In this document: one piece after another, positions 24,283 to 63,687 of the stretch
How the letters are laid out: the number at the start of each line of letters is the position of its first letter
Numbering within the stretch: the first letter of the stretch is position 1
The notes under the pieces: generated by a model
Seen by the model: only the letters and a program-made list of their open reading frames with translations
Told to the model about the DNA's origin: nothing
Databases searched by the model: none
Assembly (NCBI GenBank): GCA_044226625.1
Contig: JBGAGQ010000003.1
Location: 156,190-220,189 of the forward strand
Source: Thermoanaerobaculia bacterium
GTDB lineage: Bacteria; Acidobacteriota; Thermoanaerobaculia; Multivoradales; UBA5704
Length of the DNA: 64,000 bases
Reading direction: 5' to 3'
Made by a program: the position numbers and the translations under genes

Positions 24283-26352
24283 TTACAGCGTGCAGGTCGG
24301 CCGCGCGCCGCAGGCGATGCCGTGCGCGGTGTAGGCGTCCCAGATCCTGCAGCCGTTCGGCGTGCCGTTCGCGAGGTTGCCGTCGTCGTCGTCCGCGGCC
24401 AGGAACACCGTGTACCAGTTCGACGCCGCGCAGCCGTCCACCGTCGCCGCCGGGTTGCACTTGCCTCCCGCGGCGACGCGATACGCGCTCTTGCTCGGCG
24501 TCAAGCTCTTGTACCAGATCGAATCCATGTTCGCCCAACCGGCGGTCGAGCCGTAGCGGCTGACGAGCGACTGCGCGAGATCCCAGTTCGCCGAGCTCGC
24601 GATGTAGCTCTCGCAGTGCCCTTCATAACCCATCGGTCCCTGATAGGCGCCGATGAAGATCAGCTGGAAGTAGGGGCAGGTGTAGCGGTCGCAATTGATG
24701 CCGTTGTTGTCGGCGACCGTGCTCGGCTTGGCGATCGTCTTGGTGCCCAGCGTCGAGAAATCCTGCATGTCGCGCACGCCCGTGCAGGTCGTGCAGTTCG
24801 TGCAGGTGACGCCCGGCTGGAAGTTCGGGCCGATGCAGCTGTTCTTCGTCTCGAGGAAGGCGAACGTGTCGCCCACCGCCTCGCCCGTTCCCTTGTCGCT
24901 CGCGGCGCCGCCCGAGTTGGTGTCCATCCCATGGCCCCACTCGTGGAGGAACACCGCCGCGATCTCGCCCGTGTTCGAACAGCCGCCGCCCGAGCGGTAG
25001 AAGTTCACCGTCGAGCCGTTCCAGAACGCGTTGCACGTCTGGTTGATGTTCATGTTCGCGGTGACCGTACCGTTCAACCAGGCGTTGCCGGGCAGGAAGC
25101 CGGCGGCTTTCCGGTTGATGTTGGTCAGGTGGTAGTAACCCGACCGCGTGGCGTGGGTGTTGCCCGCGCCGCCGACGCCCGGCGTCGTGCAGTCGGTGCC
25201 GCCGCTCGTGCCGAACGCGAGGTTGCCCGTCGTCGAATCCGACAGCGAGATCGCGCCGCAGTTGTCGGTCATCTTGAAATACTTACCGTTGAGCGTCGAG
25301 GTCGCCGCCCCGCCCGAGTAGGTGTAATTGCCCGCGGCGTCGGTCACCTTTGCGCCGCCGTTCGTGACGTTCGCGAACGGCAGACCGCGCACCACCTCGG
25401 GGTCCGTGTTGGTGGTCGGGAAGATCCCCCCGGTCACCTGGGCGTAGGAGTTCAAATCGACCATCTCCAGCACGCGGCCGGACTTGGCGTCGACCACCGC
25501 CTGCCAGGTCGTCGGATCGCCGTCCCGCCGGAACGCGAGACGCCACGCCAGGACGTGGCCGTAGCCCTTGCCCGGAGCGCCCGCGTAACGCATCGCCGGC
25601 GCCTCGCCGGCGGTGAGCGTCGGGTAGATCCGGAGCGCGCCCGCGTCGACGATTTCGGTCTTCTCGAACAGGCCGACACCGAGGCCGGCGAGCGCCACGG
25701 CGAACGCCTCTTCGCGGGTGATCCGAGGCCGGACGTCGAGCGTCACGTCGGCGATCTTCTCCGCGCCGAACTGCACGATGTTGCCGTTGTTGACGCGGAA
25801 GAAGACGTTCGCCCCCTCGACCGGCAGGCCGCGATAGAACTGCTGCAGCTCGATCGACCAGAAGCGGCCGTCGCCCGAGCGCGCGCTCGACGCCGCGTCG
25901 AGCCGCAGCGAGGCCGGCGCGACCCGCAGGACCTCGGGGAACCGCGCGAGGAACCCGCGCACGCGCGCTTCGACGTCGGCAAGGGTGGGATCCCGGTCGA
26001 GCTTCACGTCCTCACGGGTCAGGCGGTTGCCCTTGCCCGGCATCAGCGGTATGCCCACCCCTTCGATCAGGTTCGGCCGGCCGCTCCGCGTGTCCATCCG
26101 GACCTCCCACTCCGAGGAGTGGTTCGCGAAGAAGCGGTCGAGCGCCGCGAGGTCGGCGGCCCGCCGCGTGCCACGCTCGTAGATCGCGAGCGAAGGCGTG
26201 ACGTCGAGGTCGGGGACCGAGCCCCCGCGCGCGAAGGCGGCCGGACGCGGTGCGCCGGGGGGCGCCGAGGGCGGCTGGATGGCGTGAGCGAGCGACGGCG
26301 CGAGAATCGCCGCGGCGAGGACGACGAGACTCCTCGGACACAGAGCTTTCAC
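24283..26352 (-). CDS. Secreted zinc metalloprotease (M4/M36-like gluzincin) with FTP/PepSY-like propeptide, paralog 1
   Basis: GGAGGAG RBS + GTG, signal peptide, QFYRGLPVEG, VDAKSG, CNAFWNG, HEWGH and downstream GEAVGD. Confidence 0.88.
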   Translation of the reverse strand: MKALCPRSLVVLAAAILAPSLAHAIQPPSAPPGAPRPAAFARGGSVPDLDVTPSLAIYERGTRRAADLAALDRFFANHSSEWEVRMDTRSGRPNLIEGVGIPLMPGKGNRLTREDVKLDRDPTLADVEARVRGFLARFPEVLRVAPASLRLDAASSARSGDGRFWSIELQQFYRGLPVEGANVFFRVNNGNIVQFGAEKIADVTLDVRPRITREEAFAVALAGLGVGLFEKTEIVDAGALRIYPTLTAGEAPAMRYAGAPGKGYGHVLAWRLAFRRDGDPTTWQAVVDAKSGRVLEMVDLNSYAQVTGGIFPTTNTDPEVVRGLPFANVTNGGAKVTDAAGNYTYSGGAATSTLNGKYFKMTDNCGAISLSDSTTGNLAFGTSGGTDCTTPGVGGAGNTHATRSGYYHLTNINRKAAGFLPGNAWLNGTVTANMNINQTCNAFWNGSTVNFYRSGGGCSNTGEIAAVFLHEWGHGMDTNSGGAASDKGTGEAVGDTFAFLETKNSCIGPNFQPGVTCTNCTTCTGVRDMQDFSTLGTKTIAKPSTVADNNGINCDRYTCPYFQLIFIGAYQGPMGYEGHCESYIASSANWDLAQSLVSRYGSTAGWANMDSIWYKSLTPSKSAYRVAAGGKCNPAATVDGCAASNWYTVFLAADDDDGNLANGTPNGCRIWDAYTAHGIACGARPTCTL

Positions 26353-26556
26353 GTGGTCTCCTCCCTTTCGTTGAGGGGTGGTGGCTTGCCTTAAACACCG
26401 TAGTGCTCCCCGCCGAGGAGAACGAGCCGGCCGGGAGCGAGGCATTTTGGCGCGGTGCGCCGGACCACCCTGGGCAGGCCTCGCGGCCCCCCATACGAGA
26501 AAGGCCGCCACTCGAAAGCGACGGCCTCTCCCCAGTCGAGAAAGGTGCCGGAACCT

Positions 26557-28620
26557 CTACTGCGTGCAGGTCGGCCGCGCGCCGCAGGCGATGCCGTGCG
26601 CGGTGTAGGCGTCCCAGATCCTGCAGCCGTTCGGCGTGCCGTTCGCGAGGTTGCCGTCGTCATCGTCCGCGGCCAAGAACACCGTGTACCAGTTCGACGC
26701 CGCGCAGCCGTCCACCGTCGCCGCCGGGTTGCACTTGCCGCCGGCGACCAACCGGTACGCGCTCTTGCTCGGGGTCAAGCTCTTGTACCAGATGGCGTCC
26801 ATCTTCTGCCAACCGGTGGTCGTGCCCCAACGGGTGACGAGCGACTGGGCGAGGTCCCAGTTCGCCGAGCTCGCGATGTAGCTCTCGCAATGCCCTTCAT
26901 ACCCCATCGGTCCCTGATAGGCCGTGATGCCGCCGCTCAGGTACGGGCAGGTGAAACGGTCGCAGTTGATGCCGTTGTTGTCGGCGACCGTGCTCGGCTT
27001 GGCGATCGTCTTGGTGCCCAGCGTCGAGAAGTCTTGCACGTCGCGCACGCCCGTGCAGGTCGTGCAGTTCGTGCAGGTCACGCCCGGACGGAAGTTCGGG
27101 CCGATGCAGCTGTTCTTGGTCTCGAGGAAGGCGAACGTGTCGCCCACCGCCTCGCCCGTCCCCTTGTCGCTCGCCGCGCCGCCCGAGTTGGTGTCCATCC
27201 CGTGGCCCCACTCGTGGAGGAACACCGCCGCGATCTCGCCCGTGTTCGAGCAGCCGCCGCCCGAGCGGTAGAAGTTCACCGTCGAGCCGTTCCAGAACGC
27301 GTTGCACGTCTGGTTGATGTTCATGTTCGCGGTCAGGGTGCCGTTCAGCCAATTGTTGGTGGTGAGGAAGCTGGCCGCTTTCCGGTTGATGTTCGTCAGA
27401 TGGTAGTAGCCCGAACGCGTGGCGTGCGTGTTGCCCGCGCCGCCGACGCCCGGCGTCGTGCAGTTGGTGCCGCCGCTCGTTCCGAATGCGAGGTTGCCCG
27501 TCGTGGTGTTCGAAAGCGAGATCGAGCCACAGTTGTCGCTCATCCGGATGTACCGGCCGTTGAGCGTCGAGGTCGCGGTGCCGCCCGAGTAGGTGTAGTT
27601 GCCCGCGGAGTCGGCCACTTTGCTGCCACCGTTCGTGACGTTCGCGAACGGCAGGCCGACGACCACCTCCGGGTCGGTGTTGGTGGTCGGATAGACACCG
27701 CCGGTCACCTGGGCGTAGTCGTTCAGGTCCTGGAGGCTCAGCAGGTTGCCGGTCCGCGCGTCGACCACGGCGCCCCACGTCGCCGCATCGCCTTCGCGAC
27801 GGAAGGAGAGCTTCCAGGCGAGCACGTGGCCGTACCCTTTGCCGGGGTTGCCCGCGAAGCGCATGCCCGGGGCCTCGCCCTCGGTGAGGGTGGGATAGAT
27901 CCGGAGCGTGCCCGCCTCGACGATCTCGGTCTTCTCGAACAGGCCGATGCCGAGCGCGGCGAACGCCTTCGCGAACGCCTCTTCACGGCTCACCGACGGA
28001 CGCACGTCGAGCCGGACCTCGGCGATCTTCTCCGCGCCGAACTGCACGACGTTGCCCTGGTTGATGCGGAAGAAGACGTGCGCGCCGTCCACGGGGATCC
28101 CCCGGTAGTACTGCGCGAGCTCGATCGCCCAGAACTGGCCGTCCCGGCCGGCGCGCGCGCTCGAGGTCTCGTCCAACCGGAGCTGGCCTGGCGCCACCCT
28201 CAGGATCTCGGGGAACTTCGCGAGGAACCCCCGCACGCGGGTCTCAACGTCGCGCAGCGTCACGTCGCCCGAATGGCCGAGCCCGAGGTCTTCGCGGGTC
28301 AGCCGGTTGCCCTTGCCGGGCAGCAGCGGGATACCGATCCCCTCGATCAGGTTCGGCCGCGCGTTGCGCGTGTCCATCCGAACTTCCCACTGGTCGGAAT
28401 GGTTGGCGAAAAAGCGCTGGAACGAGGGGAGGTTCACGGCCTGCCGCGACCCGCGGCCGAAGATCTCGAGCGACGGCGAGACCTCGAGCAGGGTCGGCTT
28501 CGCCCCGAGCGGAGCTACGCGGAGCGATTCGTGCGGCGGAACGATGGCGGACGCGAACGACGGGAACCACAGGGCTGCGACGAGAGCGACGGCGACACTC
28601 CCCCTGACGAGGGTCCTCAT
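26557..28620 (-). CDS. Secreted zinc metalloprotease (M4/M36-like), paralog 2
   Basis: AGGAGGAG RBS + ATG 28620; same motifs as paralog 1. Confidence 0.88.
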   Translation of the reverse strand: MRTLVRGSVAVALVAALWFPSFASAIVPPHESLRVAPLGAKPTLLEVSPSLEIFGRGSRQAVNLPSFQRFFANHSDQWEVRMDTRNARPNLIEGIGIPLLPGKGNRLTREDLGLGHSGDVTLRDVETRVRGFLAKFPEILRVAPGQLRLDETSSARAGRDGQFWAIELAQYYRGIPVDGAHVFFRINQGNVVQFGAEKIAEVRLDVRPSVSREEAFAKAFAALGIGLFEKTEIVEAGTLRIYPTLTEGEAPGMRFAGNPGKGYGHVLAWKLSFRREGDAATWGAVVDARTGNLLSLQDLNDYAQVTGGVYPTTNTDPEVVVGLPFANVTNGGSKVADSAGNYTYSGGTATSTLNGRYIRMSDNCGSISLSNTTTGNLAFGTSGGTNCTTPGVGGAGNTHATRSGYYHLTNINRKAASFLTTNNWLNGTLTANMNINQTCNAFWNGSTVNFYRSGGGCSNTGEIAAVFLHEWGHGMDTNSGGAASDKGTGEAVGDTFAFLETKNSCIGPNFRPGVTCTNCTTCTGVRDVQDFSTLGTKTIAKPSTVADNNGINCDRFTCPYLSGGITAYQGPMGYEGHCESYIASSANWDLAQSLVTRWGTTTGWQKMDAIWYKSLTPSKSAYRLVAGGKCNPAATVDGCAASNWYTVFLAADDDDGNLANGTPNGCRIWDAYTAHGIACGARPTCTQ

Positions 28621-29055
28621 GGGCACTCCTCCTTTTAGATCACAGGATGTTCCTGTACCCAAGTAGGTGCACGGGAAGGCGGTCGGCGAGACGAGGAATG
28701 TCGGAAGGCCGCCCGGACATTTCGCCGAGGAAAGTCGCCCCGTCCTCACCGGCCCGAGGAAGGCGGGCTCGCGAGCTCCCGCTGATCCCCGCACCGCGGA
28801 TTTCCGGCCGAACTTTCCGACGCCGCAAAGGCGCTTCCGCCGATCTTGCCGAAATGATGATGCCGTTTGCCGCCTCCCAGCGCGCGGCAGACCTCGGCAC
28901 CACCCTTGCTATCCGACACAAACGAAAGCTTTTCGTCGGTGCGCGACGAAGAGCGTGCTCCCAAGAGCGGGGGGAACTCTCGCCGGTCGAACCGATCCCG
29001 CAGGCTCGAGCCGGACCCCTTCGTCGTCGCGGGGTATTTGTGTAAGGAGGATTCG

Positions 29056-45174: not shown

Positions 45175-46227
45175 ATGTCCAGATGCTTGCGCGCCGTTCC
45201 GATCGCTCTCCTTCTCCTCTTGGCATGTTCTGTTCCCTCCCGGGCGGTACCGGGGGCGACCGACAGAGTGCCGGCGGCGACCCTGCTGGTCCCGTTCTTC
45301 GAAACCGGAATCAACTCTGAATTCAATCCGAACGACACGCTCATGGTCGTCACCAACTGGCTGTTCGGGAATCAAACGTTCCATTACCACGTCTGGGACA
45401 TCGACGGAAACGCGACCCCGATCCACGGCAACATCACTCTCGGCAGCCTCGGAACGTGGACCGCCGCCATGCGAAACATTCTGAACGCGGCGACTCCGGA
45501 GCAACGCAACTTGCTGGCCGTCGGCGATTTCTACCGGGGATTCGTCACGATCGACGTGGTGACCGCCGCGACCGCTTTGAACCCGCGGCAGCCGGACTAC
45601 CCGTTCTCGCAAGAAAATGCCCTCGAAGGCTTCATTTACTACACCCGCCTCTCTCAAGGCTCGGCCAACGGTCTGGCGATGGTTGCCCTGGAGGCGATAC
45701 CCGCCACCGCCAACAGCCTCCTCCGAGGGTTCTATCGCGCGGGCGATCTCCGGGAAGAGATCGACGCGAACGCCCGGGTGTGCGCGCAGGCGCTGGCCAC
45801 AGGCGCCCCATGCCCCGCGACGGCCGCAGGCGACGACATCGACCGCTTTCACCTGCGGGTCTTCCGCTCGACGCCACTCAACGGCAGCAGCCGGGCAGTG
45901 ATCTTTGCCTGGACTCTCGGCCGACCGGACGGGCCTTCGTTGATCTGCGACGATCCGGGAGCCGGCTGCGCGTCGTCCTATACCTTCCGCCAGTACAACG
46001 AGAGCGGCGCCATCGTCCAGGACACGACGCTTCGTCTGCCCAACGTCGTCAACGTGATCTCGGACTCCCGAATCCTCGGAGACCAGGCAGGATGGATTTC
46101 GGTGTTCGACGTACCGAACATCGCCTTCGATACCCAGGTCTACGCTTTCTCGTTCAACTCGGCTTTCCCTTCGGGCAACGTCGGCTTGACGTGGGATGCA
46201 ATCTTTGAAGGGTACATCGTGCCGTAG
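45175..46227 (+). CDS. Secreted hypothetical protein
   Basis: AAGGA RBS, signal peptide, DRVPAATLLVPFFE, beta-rich, paired Cys. Confidence 0.8.
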   Translation: MSRCLRAVPIALLLLLACSVPSRAVPGATDRVPAATLLVPFFETGINSEFNPNDTLMVVTNWLFGNQTFHYHVWDIDGNATPIHGNITLGSLGTWTAAMRNILNAATPEQRNLLAVGDFYRGFVTIDVVTAATALNPRQPDYPFSQENALEGFIYYTRLSQGSANGLAMVALEAIPATANSLLRGFYRAGDLREEIDANARVCAQALATGAPCPATAAGDDIDRFHLRVFRSTPLNGSSRAVIFAWTLGRPDGPSLICDDPGAGCASSYTFRQYNESGAIVQDTTLRLPNVVNVISDSRILGDQAGWISVFDVPNIAFDTQVYAFSFNSAFPSGNVGLTWDAIFEGYIVP

Positions 46228-46353
46228 GTGCGTGGGCAACTCCCCAACGCGATGGATACGGTCCGTCACCCCTTAACCTGATCCCCGACTTGGCGAGGCG
46301 TTCTACGGCTTCCCAGGCGCCTCTGCGCTCCATGGATACGCGCTGCAGTTCAA

Positions 46354-46633
46354 GAATCCGGGACGTATCTCCGGAATACGGGACGAAAATTCCGAATACG
46401 GGACGTATCTCCGGAATAGGGGACGAAAATACCGAATACGGGACGTGAAATCGGAATACGGGACGTTTCCACTGATTACGGGACGTATAGCCTGAATACG
46501 GGACGCACCTCCTGGTAATGGGACGTAATTCCAGAGTACGGGACGAATTTCCAGAGAACGGGACCGATGGCCAGAGAATGGGACGTGCGCCCGGGAAACG
46601 GGACGTGCTGGGCGAATAGGAGACGTGCCGACG
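46354..46633. repeat. Tandem array of 14 units with 20-bp period (core GAATACGGGACG + 8 variable nt); degenerate units to about 46727
   Basis: GGACG or a one-mismatch variant starts at 46361, 46381, ... 46621. Confidence 0.95.
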
Positions 46634-46764
46634 GTGGCTCGCCCCTCTCGGTTGGAAATCGGGGCGCTCCGTCGGAAATCAGCACATCGGGGCAGGATTC
46701 GGGTCGGCAGGCCAGAATTCGGGACGTCGTTCGGCTGGCTGCCGCATGCGCGATGGAACGCGCG

Positions 46765-47154
46765 TCACCCCTTCTTCTTGCCGAGTGCGGCGGCGATCTC
46801 TTCCCGCATCATCTCGCGCAGGCTCTCTTTGAGGTCGGCGTCCAGCTCCGGTGCGTCCGGCCGGCGCTTGTTCGGCGGATCGGTGCTGGGAACGATCCAA
46901 TCTTCCAAGCGGTGCTGCGCCGAGCGTTCGGCTTCGGCGTGCGCGAGGCGAAAGAAGTCCGAGGTCGGAACCTGGAGGTATCGCGCGAGGCCGTTCACGT
47001 GGCGGACGCGCAGCTCCATCTGGCCGTTGAAGATCTCGTCCAAGCGACCGTGGCCGATTTCCATCGCCTGCTCGACCTCGTGCTTCGTCCCCGGCGCGGC
47101 GGCGACCGCCCTGCGCACGACGTCCAGCACCGCCTTGATGTCCTTGTCGCTCAT
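46765..47154 (-). CDS. XRE-like helix-turn-helix protein
   Basis: KHEVEQAMEIGHGRLDEIFNGQMELRVRHV..LARYLQV...DFF. Confidence 0.7.
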   Translation of the reverse strand: MSDKDIKAVLDVVRRAVAAAPGTKHEVEQAMEIGHGRLDEIFNGQMELRVRHVNGLARYLQVPTSDFFRLAHAEAERSAQHRLEDWIVPSTDPPNKRRPDAPELDADLKESLREMMREEIAAALGKKKG

Positions 47155-47353
47155 CGTTCAACTCTACCCGCTCTTGGCCACGGCCGCACCGCAATTCGTA
47201 CCGGTCAACCCCCAACGCCAGGGGGCTCCAGAAGCATCGATCCGTTCGATGACGGACCACCTCGCATCCATCCCTCACTCGTAACATCGATCTCTGCGCA
47301 TTCGCCTATGAAAGATGTCTTACCTTGACCATCTTTCAGAGGAGGTTCATCGA

Positions 47354-48505
47354 ATGCCTTCGGTACGTCCCGCGTTCCGTCTCATCGCCGTTTTCGCCTG
47401 CGCTCTCGTGCTTTCCACGCTTTCGGCCGGTGCCCAGGGAGCTCCGCAGTGTGGGCAGTACCCGCGCATGGTTCCGAACTACGACTATCCCCCGAACGCC
47501 TCCCAGTTCGACTCGATCTGCCTGCCCGAAGCGTGGGAATTCATGCGGGCCCGGTGGCAGGGCATCTCGCTCGGCGCGCCTTGGCCCACCGTGGTGGTGA
47601 TCGACGACGGCTTCTTCACGACCAAGGACAGCAGTCTCCGGCCGTCGCTGTTTCCCGGTCCGGGTGGCAGCACCGCCGCGGGCGACACGGCCCCGCTCCC
47701 GGCCTACGGCATCCACGGCACGAGCGTTCTCTCGCTGCTGGCTTCTCGGCTGGGCAACGGCTATATCGAAGGGGGCGTCGGCCCGATCGCGGGGTTCGCC
47801 AACCTCGGCGCCGACTTCTTCCTGATTCGCGACCGAACGACGGCTCAGGGTCCCACCCCCGGGCTGATCGCCCAGTTCCTCGGCCAGTACGTCATGCCCT
47901 ATGCCGGCCGGCGGGTGGTGAACATCAGCCAGTCGCTCGTCGACGTCACGAGCTCGACCCAACTGGCGGACCAGCTCGACTACGCGAACTGGGAGCAGAT
48001 CGTGGTCGTGACCGGCGCCGGCAACCATCGCGAAACGGTTCCGGCCAACGCCTGGATCCGCGGCTTCGAAAACGTCATCGTGGTGGGGGGCCTGAACGAG
48101 ATCGGGAGCAAGCTTTGGGTCGGAGGGACCGGCGTGGGATCCGCGACCGGGGCGGGCGTCGACCTCTACGCTCCCGCCGAAAACCTCGACGTCCTGATTC
48201 GGGACGCCCAGATCGTCACCGACAGCGGGACCTCGTTCGCCGCTCCCCTCGTCACCTCGGTCGTGGCGATGATGCAGAACCTCGACCCGACGCTCGACTC
48301 GTGGGAGGTGCGCGACATCTTGATCAAGACGGCCGACGCGGGAACCTACCGGCGCTTGAACGCGATCAAGGCCCTCCTGTGCGTCGACTCGATCAGTCGC
48401 TGGAGCGCCTATCCGCCCCCCGGCAGCAACTGGCTGCCGGTGCACAACTGGTCGTGCTCGATGAGCGGCTTCGGCGTCGCCTCCGGGCAGCGCGTCGGCT
48501 GGTAA
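47354..48505 (+). CDS. Secreted S8 subtilisin-like serine peptidase
   Basis: GAGGAGG RBS, signal peptide, VIDDG, HGTSV, GAGN, GTSFAAP. Confidence 0.9.
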   Translation: MPSVRPAFRLIAVFACALVLSTLSAGAQGAPQCGQYPRMVPNYDYPPNASQFDSICLPEAWEFMRARWQGISLGAPWPTVVVIDDGFFTTKDSSLRPSLFPGPGGSTAAGDTAPLPAYGIHGTSVLSLLASRLGNGYIEGGVGPIAGFANLGADFFLIRDRTTAQGPTPGLIAQFLGQYVMPYAGRRVVNISQSLVDVTSSTQLADQLDYANWEQIVVVTGAGNHRETVPANAWIRGFENVIVVGGLNEIGSKLWVGGTGVGSATGAGVDLYAPAENLDVLIRDAQIVTDSGTSFAAPLVTSVVAMMQNLDPTLDSWEVRDILIKTADAGTYRRLNAIKALLCVDSISRWSAYPPPGSNWLPVHNWSCSMSGFGVASGQRVGW

Positions 48506-50578: not shown

Positions 50579-50628
50579 TTCGCGGGCTGCTGAAAACCCC
50601 TGGGGGGCCGCTCGGCGTACTGCACCGC

Positions 50629-50772
50629 CCCCACCTCGATCCTCCCCCGCAAGCGGGGGAGGAGGCCCGCCCGGCCCCTTTTGCCTCCTTCGGGTCCGCC
50701 CGCCGCTCCCGACTCCTACTTCCTCTCGGTGCAGGGTCCTCCCCCCGCTTGCGGGGGGAGGCCAGGAGGGGG
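50629..50772. repeat. Inverted pair of REP-like palindromes between convergent genes
   Basis: CCTCCCCCGCAAGCGGGGGAGG and CCTCCCCCCGCTTGCGGGGGGAGG. Confidence 0.7.
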
Positions 50773-50803
50773 GAACTCAGGCTGGCGGGGTTGGGGTTTC
50801 TCT

Positions 50804-62114: not shown

Positions 62115-62144
62115 AAAGCCGAAGATCGGCGGAGCGAAGGATGG

Positions 62145-62446
62145 ACCGGGCTTTCAGCCCTGGGTTTCCCTTTCGGACTTGGGACCTGGGGCGTTGCCCC
62201 AGGCTATTATGGGTCCGCGCCTTTGGCGCTGGCGCTCGTGCATTTCGGGCCGCTTAGTTCCAGCCTCCAAGTCTCAAGAGCGCGAATGCTGCATTCGATC
62301 ATCGCCTGAGGCAACGCCCCCAGGATTGTGCGCCGCTTACATCTCGAAAAGCGCCGAAGGCGCGACCCATAATAGCCTGGGGCAACGCCCCCGGGATTGT
62401 GCGTCGCTTGCACCTCGAAAAGCGCCGAAGGCGCGACCCATAATAG
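62145..62446. repeat. Cluster of REP-like palindromes (BIME-like), 71-bp tandem unit
   Basis: AGCGCCGAAGGCGCGACCCATAATAGCCTGGGGCAACGCCCC units at about 62350 and 62421, an inverted copy at about 62185-62230 and a partial copy at about 62305. Confidence 0.85.
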
Positions 62447-62538
62447 ATGCTATGGAGGGTCGAGGCCCCCGGGTGAGTGAGGTTGTGGGCCGGCTGGATA
62501 ATTCTCTGGAACCACCATCGCCAAACGGAGGCAACCAG

Positions 62539-63687
62539 ATGAGCCAGACGACCCACAAAACAGAGTCTAAAGCGGCCGACCAGAGTTTGTATCTCGCGCT
62601 GGATTTGGGCTGGACCCAATGGCATTTGGCGTTCACGACCGAAATGGGGCAGAAGCCTCGATTGCGGACGATCCCCGCCCGGGAGCTGTCGACTTTGCAA
62701 GAGGAGATCCGACGGGCCAAGGAGTGCCTTGGCCTGCCAGCTCAGGCTCGCGTAGCGAGCGTTTTCGAGGCGGGTCGAGACGGTTTCTGGCTGCACCGAT
62801 TTCTGCAATCGATTGGCGTGGAGAATCGCGTCGTGGACTCCTCGAGCATCGAGGTGAGTCGACGGCGACGTCGGGCCAAAACCGACCGGTTGGATGTTCT
62901 CAAGCTAGTGGATTTGCTGCGACGCCACGAGTCGGGAGAGGTGCGAGCGTGGAGTGTCGTTCGGGTTCCGAGCGTCGCCGCGGAGGATTTTCGCCAGTTG
63001 GGCCGGGAGCTGGACTTGCTCAAGCAGGAGCGGACGGAGCACGGCAACCGGATTCGAGCCCTCTTAGCGACGCAAGGAGTCGACCTGGGGACCGGAGCCT
63101 CAGGCTTTCGGCAGAGTTTCGACCGGCTCCGGTTGTGGGACGGAAGCGAGCTGCCTCCCGTTTTGCGAGCACGGTTGGAGCGGGAGCAGCAAAGGATGGA
63201 GTTTGTGGAAGCACAGATTCGAGAGCTGGAGAAGCAGCGTCAGGCGCAGGTTCAGGCTCCCACGTGTCGGGCCGAAGAGCAGGTCAACCGTTTGCTGCGA
63301 CTCAAGGCGGTCGGGATCAAGAGCGCGTGGCTGTTCGTGAGTGAGTTTTTCTCCTGGAGAGATCTTCGGAATCGTCGCCAAGTGGGGAGTTTGGCGGGTT
63401 TGGCGCCGACTCCTTACCGCAGTGGCAGCGACCTGAATCGCGAGCAAGGGATCAGCAAAGCTGGAAATCCCCGGATTCGAACGATGGCGATCGAGATCTC
63501 CTGGGGATGGTTGCGCTGGCAGCCCGACAGTGACCTATCCCAGTGGTTCTGGACTCGATTCGGCAAAGCGGGAGGCCGGGCGCGCAAGGTCGGAATCGTT
63601 GCCTTGTCCCGCAAGCTGCTCGTGGCGCTCTGGCGCTATTTGGAAACAGGAATCACCCCGGCTGGAGCCCAGTTGAAGCCCGCGTAG
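62539..63687 (+). CDS. IS110-family DEDD recombinase/transposase
   Basis: GGAGG RBS; LALDLG, FEAG, KTDRLD, GLAPTPYRSG, ISKAGN, VALSRKL. Confidence 0.96.
   Translation: MSQTTHKTESKAADQSLYLALDLGWTQWHLAFTTEMGQKPRLRTIPARELSTLQEEIRRAKECLGLPAQARVASVFEAGRDGFWLHRFLQSIGVENRVVDSSSIEVSRRRRRAKTDRLDVLKLVDLLRRHESGEVRAWSVVRVPSVAAEDFRQLGRELDLLKQERTEHGNRIRALLATQGVDLGTGASGFRQSFDRLRLWDGSELPPVLRARLEREQQRMEFVEAQIRELEKQRQAQVQAPTCRAEEQVNRLLRLKAVGIKSAWLFVSEFFSWRDLRNRRQVGSLAGLAPTPYRSGSDLNREQGISKAGNPRIRTMAIEISWGWLRWQPDSDLSQWFWTRFGKAGGRARKVGIVALSRKLLVALWRYLETGITPAGAQLKPA

Follow-up and report, generated by a model that had tools for sequence, protein, structure and literature searches.

A phased array of 20-bp units as the probable DNA partner of an adjacent XRE-type gene in Thermoanaerobaculia

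Introduction

What keeps a row of 20-bp units in strict phase while part of each unit is free to change, and has the small DNA-binding protein encoded beside it anything to do with this? The question is raised by a 64,000-nucleotide stretch of a Thermoanaerobaculia genome (GenBank assembly GCA_044226625.1, contig JBGAGQ010000003.1, positions 156,190 to 220,189), referred to below as the window (C81:156190-220189 of genome G000 in our numbering), in which a tandem array lies directly behind a gene for an XRE-type helix-turn-helix (HTH) protein. The genome is a 6.6 Mb draft of 133 contigs with 67.7% G+C, 97.9% complete and with an estimated contamination of 5.5%. An earlier note on this DNA took the array for a series of phased sites under selection and proposed either an iteron- or centromere-like platform, possibly for the adjacent XRE protein, or a transcribed repeat-spacer RNA processed into very short units. 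Comparing related genomes, we find gene and array inherited together, and on these sequences the array is best read as the conserved DNA partner of the adjacent small DNA-binding protein gene.

Results

The array and its orthologs

The core block of the array (46354..46633, plus strand) comprises 14 in-phase units of 20 bp with no indel, and its fourteen 8-mers are identical to those listed earlier. It is flanked on one side by the 3' end of a plus-strand open reading frame (ORF; 45175-46227), for which no Pfam match was found, and on the other by that of the minus-strand HTH gene (46765..47154), whose product P0001 (129 amino acids, XRE/lambda-cI-like) is the presumed array binder. Each unit carries the core GAATACGGGACG, with GGGAC at positions 7-11, then A+T-biased variable positions 13-18 and a conserved C at position 19. 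The core is exact in five of the 14 units and has one to four mismatches in the remaining nine; GGGAC is retained in 13. Tandem Repeats Finder reports a period of 20 (10.6 copies, 71% matches, score 145) and one of 40 (3.8 copies, 82% matches, score 183), the latter bearing out the 40-bp higher-order duplication of units 1-4 that had been described. Within 440 bp there are 14 copies of GGGAC on a single strand, compared with a genome mean of 0.96 per kb per strand, and the G+C content of the array is 55% against 67% for the window. Among 158 units of this array type (the C81 type, after the contig of the window), the bases of GGGAC are present in 151-158 at each position, and positions 19-20 (C, A) are also conserved. 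The earlier division of the unit into a 12-nt core and an 8-nt variable segment therefore holds for the period and the core, and the freely variable part shrinks to approximately 6 nt (positions 13-18, A+T-biased).

An ortholog of the HTH gene (83-85% amino acid identity) is found in three of the seven other genomes of the genus (G001, G002, G003), each time with an array directly behind the gene, so gene and array are linked in all four species having the ortholog. The gene-linked locus is syntenic in the four species and lies on large contigs. Searches for the array in G000 and in related genomes, of the kind that had been recommended, return nine copies in G000 itself and the array in four of the seven other genus genomes, and none of the 33 genomes outside the genus has it. 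Far from being unique to this assembly, the array has orthologs in three sister species, and the four arrays align unit by unit over approximately 17 units. Single-unit gains and losses between species are gene-distal, and only to this extent does the proposed growth of the array from the left stand. The pairwise identity of the four arrays is 0.95 for GGGAC, 0.63-0.81 for unit positions 1-6, 0.88 for position 19, and 0.53 for the linker (positions 13-18); in the orthologous HTH genes it is 0.79 at four-fold degenerate sites and 0.93, 0.93, and 0.78 at codon positions 1, 2, and 3. The difference between GGGAC and the linker indicates that linkers drift freely and that core and phase are constrained. 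This agrees with the earlier view that the phased sites are under selection rather than a product of simple slippage; judged by the four-species alignment, the array is not a fast-turnover minisatellite.

The edges of the array are part of this conservation. At the gene-distal edge (46334..46353, plus strand) stands a degenerate "unit 0," GGATACGCGCTGCAGTTCAA, which has an equally degenerate counterpart at the same spot in the three orthologous arrays. On the gene-proximal side (46634..46733, plus strand) are about five degenerate units with G+C-rich linkers, and the CGGGAC-like cores at 46654, 46694, and 46714 are the "ghost units" shifted by +1 bp that the earlier note had seen. Degenerate gene-proximal units thus do exist, but a simple rightward decay does not describe them, since the last two (…CCGGGAC… and …AATCGGGACGTCG…) are kept in all four species. 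The gene-proximal region of G000 has approximately 33 additional bases compared with the orthologous arrays.

DNA contigs of sequencing run X1, which is possibly the source sample of the assembly, span the array with zero differences. A second contig of the same run has 16 base differences and a 3-base deletion between 46537 and 46778, in the gene-proximal part of the array, which points to a co-occurring strain variant.

Paralogous loci

Each of the eight genus genomes has one to eight relatives of the protein. We fetched 32 loci, 30 of which have at least 200 nt of 3' flank, together with 31 5' flanks, and called an array clear at an autocorrelation of at least 0.55. By this measure a clear array lies directly 3' of the gene in 24 of the 30 loci, at lag 20/40 (lag 21/42 in L169). 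Five more are weaker (0.44-0.52) with lag 20 still at the top, and in one (L184) there is no array signal. On the 5' side, all 31 flanks stay below 0.55 at every lag. GGGAC occurs in the 3' flanks 184 times antisense to the gene and 17 times sense, against 16 and 20 times in the 5' flanks; the polarity of the array relative to the gene is fixed. In several paralogs the array starts 0-7 nt past the stop codon. Paralogs at 48-62% protein identity retain core, phase, and polarity, which points to selection.

The three further paralogs of G000 (on contigs C61, C60, and C124) also have arrays. The one at C61 consists of 11 units of GGGACRGAAGTTCCCGTCCT and the one at C60 is weak. At C124:7402-8522 (L169), a distant HTH paralog (24% identity, tblastn) is followed by a 21-bp array that runs over 32 periods, its unit resembling CCAGCCCACCACTGGTCTGGC. 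The neighbours scanned at the window and paralog loci are unrelated chromosomal genes, and none of them is conserved as a second gene next to the modules. The gene beyond the array is convergent in ten cases and co-directional in five, with the orientation undetermined in 14, counts that depend on crude ORF calling at non-independent loci.

Does the array change with the protein? Paralogs whose recognition helix reads GHGRLDEIF have array units of the form GAATAC-GGGAC; GHGRLIDLV goes with AAATCT-GGGAC, GHGRINDLF with CTTCCT-GGGAC, and GHGRLEE.. with (G/C).TTCT-GGGAC. The groups with GHGR therefore have a common (G)GGAC and group-specific 5' flanks (GAATAC, AAATCT, CTTCCT, GATTCT). Helices of the form SHGR(M/L)EDLW accompany units with TCGGAC, and the C124 paralog, with GGHLSKVL, accompanies its unrelated 21-bp unit. 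In other genera, proteins that carry GHGN/GHGS, TPSYL, or SRGYL have 21-bp arrays with other cores, some of them upstream of the gene. One locus from another genus (L200, G457:C71, locus positions 48-1270) has approximately 1.2 kb of 21-bp periodicity directly upstream of the family member.

The HTH protein and its family

Sequence models place P0001 only near known families. Pfam HTH_3 (PF01381) matches it below the gathering score (E = 0.0059, 17.1 bits versus a cut-off of 23), and in NCBIfam only ClgR appears, at 16.8 bits versus a cut-off of 170, which gives no membership. The PADLOC models of anti-phage defence have zero matches among the four paralogs scanned. A profile of the family compared with the Protein Data Bank matches lambda cI (E = 0.014), and the nearest Atlas clusters of the protein carry HTH_3. 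The AF2 (AlphaFold2) model has a predicted local distance difference test (pLDDT) score of 83.7, and its top Foldseek matches are XRE proteins and restriction-modification controller (C) proteins (target template-modelling score 0.65-0.72, probability 1.0, E approximately 0.014). From this model P0001 is predicted to have the five-helix HTH fold of the lambda cI/434 type.

The 30 aligned paralogs are 125-135 amino acids long. Their HTH domain is N-terminal and is joined by a Pro-rich linker to an amphipathic helix at the C terminus (LRxLIREE…; residues 106-127 in P0001). Invariant in the alignment are E28, G36, G44, H52, L56, and R113; H35, R37, W86, R117, and E119 are near-invariant. A homodimer through residues 1-87 is predicted (score 0.80 versus 0.00 for the best control, contact agreement of at least 64%, partner pLDDT of at least 75), and the C-terminal helix lies outside the predicted interface. 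The mark used for this call is passed by 20 of 30 solved one-chain pairs and by one of 23 solved single chains; because the prediction used a custom alignment and there are XRE dimers among solved structures, passing the mark may show no more than a likeness to these.

The intergenic region between the HTH gene and a divergent subtilase gene (47315-48505), at 47155..47314, is the presumed promoter region, in which a promoter scan found no sigma-70-like site; the promoter and terminator scan of 45800-47400 returned zero sites. In two studies (runs X4 and X5), RNA contigs span 46866-47104 within the HTH gene, with the array outside their coverage; they give a weak hint that the gene is expressed.

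A search of 1.84 billion representatives with the family profile returned 960 proteins at E ≤ 0.001 and 163 at E ≤ 1e-10; the top match, P0008, is an unrelated artefactual repeat protein and was set aside. At E ≤ 1e-8, members occur in 46 of the 151 genomes of the order, with a maximum of 14 copies per genome. By taxonomic family the counts are 21 of 21 genomes in f1, 8 of 8 in f4, 15 of 21 in f7, 1 of 6 in f2, and none in the others. In a phylum-wide sample, two of 301 genomes match at E ≤ 1e-12, both in the genus of the window, and one close homolog is labelled by NCBI as coming from a Thermoanaerobaculia metagenome-assembled genome. A tblastn search of 72,556 plasmids gave zero matches, and no family relative was found on viral contigs. 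In families f4 and f7 (L205, L208, L209, L210, L214, L216), the HTH family genes often stand as tandem pairs, and no adjoining phased array was seen there. A collection-wide scan for four GGGACG at 20-bp spacing brought up, among the matches listed, mostly unrelated perfect minisatellites. Also among the matches listed are two similar Thermoanaerobaculia loci (L096 and L053), neither with a family gene in the DNA examined around them.

Orphan copies and other phased arrays in the genome

The nine sites of C81-type arrays in G000 are on C20, C29, C58, C81 (the window), C92, C100, C114, C133, and C93 (a variant). All have the 20-bp period, with 129 GGGAC in total, and in four cases a contig end lies within approximately 400 bp. 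The copies resemble one another only from about -35 to +430 relative to the array start. Their linkers are homologous from copy to copy (TATATTCG, TGAATNCA, AATTAGCA, etc.), so whole arrays were copied and the linkers are not acquired spacers. None of the eight orphan arrays has an HTH gene beside it, and their neighbours are unrelated (a WYL regulator, NRPS-like, HAD, MacB, fn3, ABC/CrcB, and DinG-like helicase genes). Inspection of the orphan edges by eye showed neither terminal inverted repeats nor target duplications, no inverted array pairs occur on one contig, and no transposase was found among the scanned orphan neighbours. As for the C58 orphan, no array follows the orthologous MacB gene of G001, G002, G003, and G006; conservation does not extend to the NRPS gene on the opposite side, so that no exact insertion boundary can be read. 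A dispersed repeat of approximately 160 bp in the window (50609-50773) has dozens of genomic copies at 70-100% identity, one of them just upstream of the C29 orphan array.

Is the 20-bp period peculiar to this array type? We computed a tandem-periodicity spectrum of G000 (lags 7-45, threshold 0.60 over 140 nt). Lag 20 accounts for 30 regions and lag 21 for 41, with harmonics at lags 40 (25 regions), 41 (8), and 42 (45); the other lags have zero to four regions each, and apart from two regions at lag 43 these all fall on multiples of three. The 6.6 Mb thus hold approximately 70-90 tandem arrays, almost all of 20 or 21 bp or multiples (e.g., C9:14260-14608, C14:76565-76951, C40:30090-30629, C33:47892-48389). 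Besides the C81 type they form several sequence families among unrelated genes. The HTH-array module is therefore one face of a larger phenomenon.

A second family of 20-bp arrays has the palindromic core GGAAGTSACTTCC and approximately nine copies (C9:14260, C14:76565, C44:5203, C58:46205, C84:184870, C91:2530, C125:66196, C126:44970, C1:37233), next to unrelated genes (SBP/CheX, TPR, sigma-54 activator, DAHP synthase, and cation efflux genes). Small, divergent Pterin_4a genes (PCD/DCoH-like) have a 20- or 21-bp array directly after them at three of six loci (C109:47969-48232, C76:30734-30994, C125:66613-66873), and at C76 a distant HTH-family member follows the array. Such a gene and its array are possibly a second or a three-part module. 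A 145-amino acid ORF beside the C125 array shows no relation to the family profile by hhalign. An all-against-all BLAST for recurrent neighbour genes gave output dominated by the translated repeats themselves.

Signs of an RNA element

In the 158 units Watson-Crick covariation is absent, and the top mutual-information pairs are neighbouring positions. Folding gives z-scores of -1.71 (plus strand) and +1.16 (minus strand), and Rfam has nothing on the array at E values up to 10. The repeat-spacer RNA of the earlier note, with its homologous linkers, finds no footing in these results. Two specific candidates were rejected. The motif ACG-GGA-CGU resembles a CsrA site, as in sponges of the CsrB/RsmZ type, but the CsrA domain (PF02599) was not found in this 97.9%-complete genome. 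A CRISPR or other repeat-spacer locus is contradicted by "spacers" that are homologous between copies and species and by the 20-bp unit, and there is no cas gene among the scanned ORFs. As stated earlier, cas, rep, and par genes are all missing from the window ORFs scanned (sets of 16 and 23, picked by length and codon bias). Sequence-unrelated arrays all keep a period of 20 or 21 bp, which argues for a two-helical-turn property of DNA and not of RNA; a helical-phase constraint on DNA predicts just this confinement.

Other repeats and genes in the window

A 71-bp tandem duplication (62304-62446, 93% matches) lies inside another small dispersed repeat family (62126-62578) with many genomic copies. 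Two adjacent minus-strand ORFs of approximately 740 amino acids each (24286-26511 and 26560-28794), both without a Pfam match, share a 9-bp tandem repeat, CGTGCAGGT (at 24781 and 27052), and are probably tandem paralogs.

Discussion

What might the array be for? We think it probable that it is a row of phased operators for the adjacent XRE-type HTH protein, and that gene and array make up a self-contained two-part chromosomal module. The proposal starts from four findings, namely that gene and array are linked, that phase and core are conserved, that polarity is fixed, and that the protein is of the HTH type; from these we infer the binding, its stoichiometry, and the role of the complex. The comparison strongly supports the phased platform for the XRE protein that was one of the earlier suggestions, through the co-inheritance of gene and array and through the arrays of the paralogs, and would make P0001 its ligand. 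In each 20-bp unit GGGAC would serve as a single strong, asymmetric site, and the near-invariant His-Gly-Arg with which the recognition helix begins probably reads it. The spacing of two helical turns would place the bound proteins on almost the same face of the DNA, coating the array. By calculation the drift would be approximately -34 degrees per unit (20 bp versus a 10.5-bp helical repeat), or one left-handed turn per 10-11 units, and the outcome would be 300-400 bp of protein-coated DNA at the 3' end of the gene.

How would a dimer sit on such an array? On a straight duplex, two direct repeats cannot both be matched by a two-fold dimer, and with no clear inverted half-site this leaves two options. 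The second subunit might contact the weakly conserved A+T-rich patch (..TCC.) 9-10 bp away, or dimers might bridge two arrays in a manner resembling handcuffing. The C-terminal helix, which is free and contains the invariant Arg113, could tie adjacent dimers together or bring in a partner. In G000 the eight orphan arrays would be occupied by this protein as well. The complex might serve as a roadblock or insulator where genes end, as a landmark for pairing or anchoring, or as a protein reservoir.

Several observations weigh against this proposal. Operators are normally at promoters, not behind a gene, and the upstream region of the HTH gene itself (47155-47314) has zero copies of GGGACG or CGTCCC; the array behind the gene and a core-free upstream region argue against ordinary promoter autoregulation. 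An inverted half-site for a symmetric dimer is not convincing (best mean match to GTCCC, 2.07 of 5). The 30 paralog loci come from eight related genomes, fall into orthogroups, and are not independent, and a correlated divergence of gene and array is partly expected from linkage and co-inheritance alone. Finally, a family member lies within 1 kb of only four of 67 phased arrays in G000. Most arrays in this genome therefore either act in trans or have other binders.

Three other explanations were considered. The arrays might be dispersed repeats that propagate themselves or expand neutrally, like MITE or BOX elements and minisatellites, with the HTH gene adjacent to no effect and the cores alike through gene conversion. 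The nine C81-type copies in G000 against only one or two in sister species would suit this, as would a conserved block limited to about -35 to +430 among unrelated genes, the 70-90 or so phased arrays of which most have no family gene nearby, and the several arrays that adjoin other small dispersed repeats. However, whole-unit conversion would not yield the differential constraint within units (0.95 for GGGAC, 0.53 for linkers), and such repeats would hardly account for paralogs at 48-62% protein identity sharing core, phase, and polarity, or for the confinement to 20 or 21 bp across sequence-unrelated arrays. Nor were terminal inverted repeats or target duplications visible by eye at the orphan edges, or a transposase found among the scanned neighbours. 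We regard this history as improbable. We give similarly little credence to the idea that the arrays are phased platforms for another factor, e.g., a nucleoid-associated protein or an unlinked regulator, with the HTH gene linked for some other reason, for instance because the array shields or terminates it. It would explain why most G000 arrays have no adjacent family gene, why arrays follow three of the six divergent Pterin_4a-like genes, and why the C81-type unit has no dyad symmetry. Yet the array flanks covary with the recognition-helix signature of the adjacent paralog, a near-invariant GHGR accompanies a near-invariant GGGAC, and no other conserved neighbour gene was found among those scanned.

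Could the array work as RNA instead, as a repeat-rich 3' untranslated region of the HTH mRNA or as a separate transcript that is processed or sponges a protein? Its position 0-7 nt after the stop codon in several paralogs means that it is probably transcribed at least in part, and by sequence reading ACG-GGA-CGU could form a small hairpin presenting GGA. But CsrA gene, Rfam match, and Watson-Crick covariation are all wanting, the folding z-scores (-1.71/+1.16) lend no help, the array stands upstream of the family gene in some relatives, and a fixed period of 20 or 21 suits the geometry of DNA. A function as RNA is accordingly very improbable.

Phased operators for the HTH protein have parallels among known systems. 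In the F plasmid, the centromere sopC reportedly lies directly behind sopB. sopC has 12 direct repeats of 43 bp, and SopB binds the 16-bp inverted repeat that each of them contains (PMC3177203, in part). The locus described here resembles sopB-sopC in joining a DNA-binding protein gene to a tandem array of its own (here presumed) sites, which would form a large nucleoprotein complex. Unlike sopB-sopC, it is not on a plasmid and lacks a gene for a SopA/ParA-type NTPase, the fold of the protein is XRE and not ParB, the units are asymmetric and of 20 rather than 43 bp, and one chromosome holds several orthogonal paralog modules together with orphan arrays. The parC of pSK41 is said to be built of 20-bp repeats. 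Type II ParR-parC centromeres (R1, pB171, pSK41) consist of short tandem repeats adjoining the gene of a small dimeric binder (PMC3074162, in part). That arrangement recurs here with a small presumed binder that is predicted to be a dimer, and the cooperative coating of parC by ParR is thought to give a helical nucleoprotein filament. In contrast to our locus, ParR is a ribbon-helix-helix protein, parC is upstream and doubles as promoter-operator, and the system is plasmid-borne with a ParM motor gene adjacent. StbA of plasmid R388 is a small two-domain HTH protein whose site, stbS, has two sets of five 9-bp repeats with 2-bp spacers, and there is no plasmid-encoded NTPase (bioRxiv 10.1101/2022.04.29.490116, in part). 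Here, too, a small HTH protein without an NTPase, with an N-terminal DNA-binding domain and a separate C-terminal part, goes with a direct-repeat array by its gene. StbA differs in its PadR-like fold, 11-bp period, location on a plasmid with the array upstream of the operon, and further single sites that control other promoters.

In iterons (R6K, P1, pSC101 type), direct repeats of approximately 17-22 bp recur about every two turns, each made up of a conserved core and a variable spacer. Our array is like them in repeat length, spacing, and layout, and the handcuffing of iterons by protein dimers is a possible analogue; unlike them, it is chromosomal and syntenic across species, with no Rep initiator among the scanned ORFs. 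XRE controller proteins and lambda cI have the fold predicted for P0001; they dimerise via the C-terminal helices of this domain and fill neighbouring operators cooperatively, as P0001 would also do, but those proteins have two or three palindromic operators at a promoter, and here 10-30 asymmetric sites follow the gene. Two identifications can be set aside. An iteron-Rep origin was rejected because the only adjacent gene encodes a 129-amino acid HTH protein and the scanned ORFs of the window include no member of a Rep family. A plasmid partition cassette shares the architecture of an array beside a gene, but there is no ParA/ParM/TubZ-type NTPase among the scanned neighbours and no plasmid location. 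The labels "iteron" and "centromere" of the earlier note thus fall away, there being no Rep gene, partition NTPase, or plasmid to go with them.

It is tempting to go further, although we hold what follows only tentatively and think it rather doubtful. This lineage might have a hitherto unnoticed layer of chromosome architecture in which dozens of two-turn arrays are address sites for small, sequence-specific proteins that build helical or bridging nucleoprotein filaments. The HTH-array modules would be its founding units, and the orphans, as landmarks that need no NTPase, would carry the reach of one protein to many loci so as to pair, anchor, or insulate regions of the chromosome.

A description of such a gene-array module was not found in the full text of open-access papers and bioRxiv preprints, and to that extent the gene-plus-array pair is undescribed. 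The strict 20/21-bp rule across sequence-unrelated arrays of one genome calls for a general explanation. If the protein coats the array, the module would be a natural chromosomal counterpart of plasmid centromere and iteron platforms and of synthetic lacO/tetO arrays. There would then be several orthogonal protein-site pairs per cell, which would be ready-made as orthogonal pairs for labelling DNA and would offer a direct handle on how chromosome regions are marked or insulated in a bacterial class rich in uncultured members.

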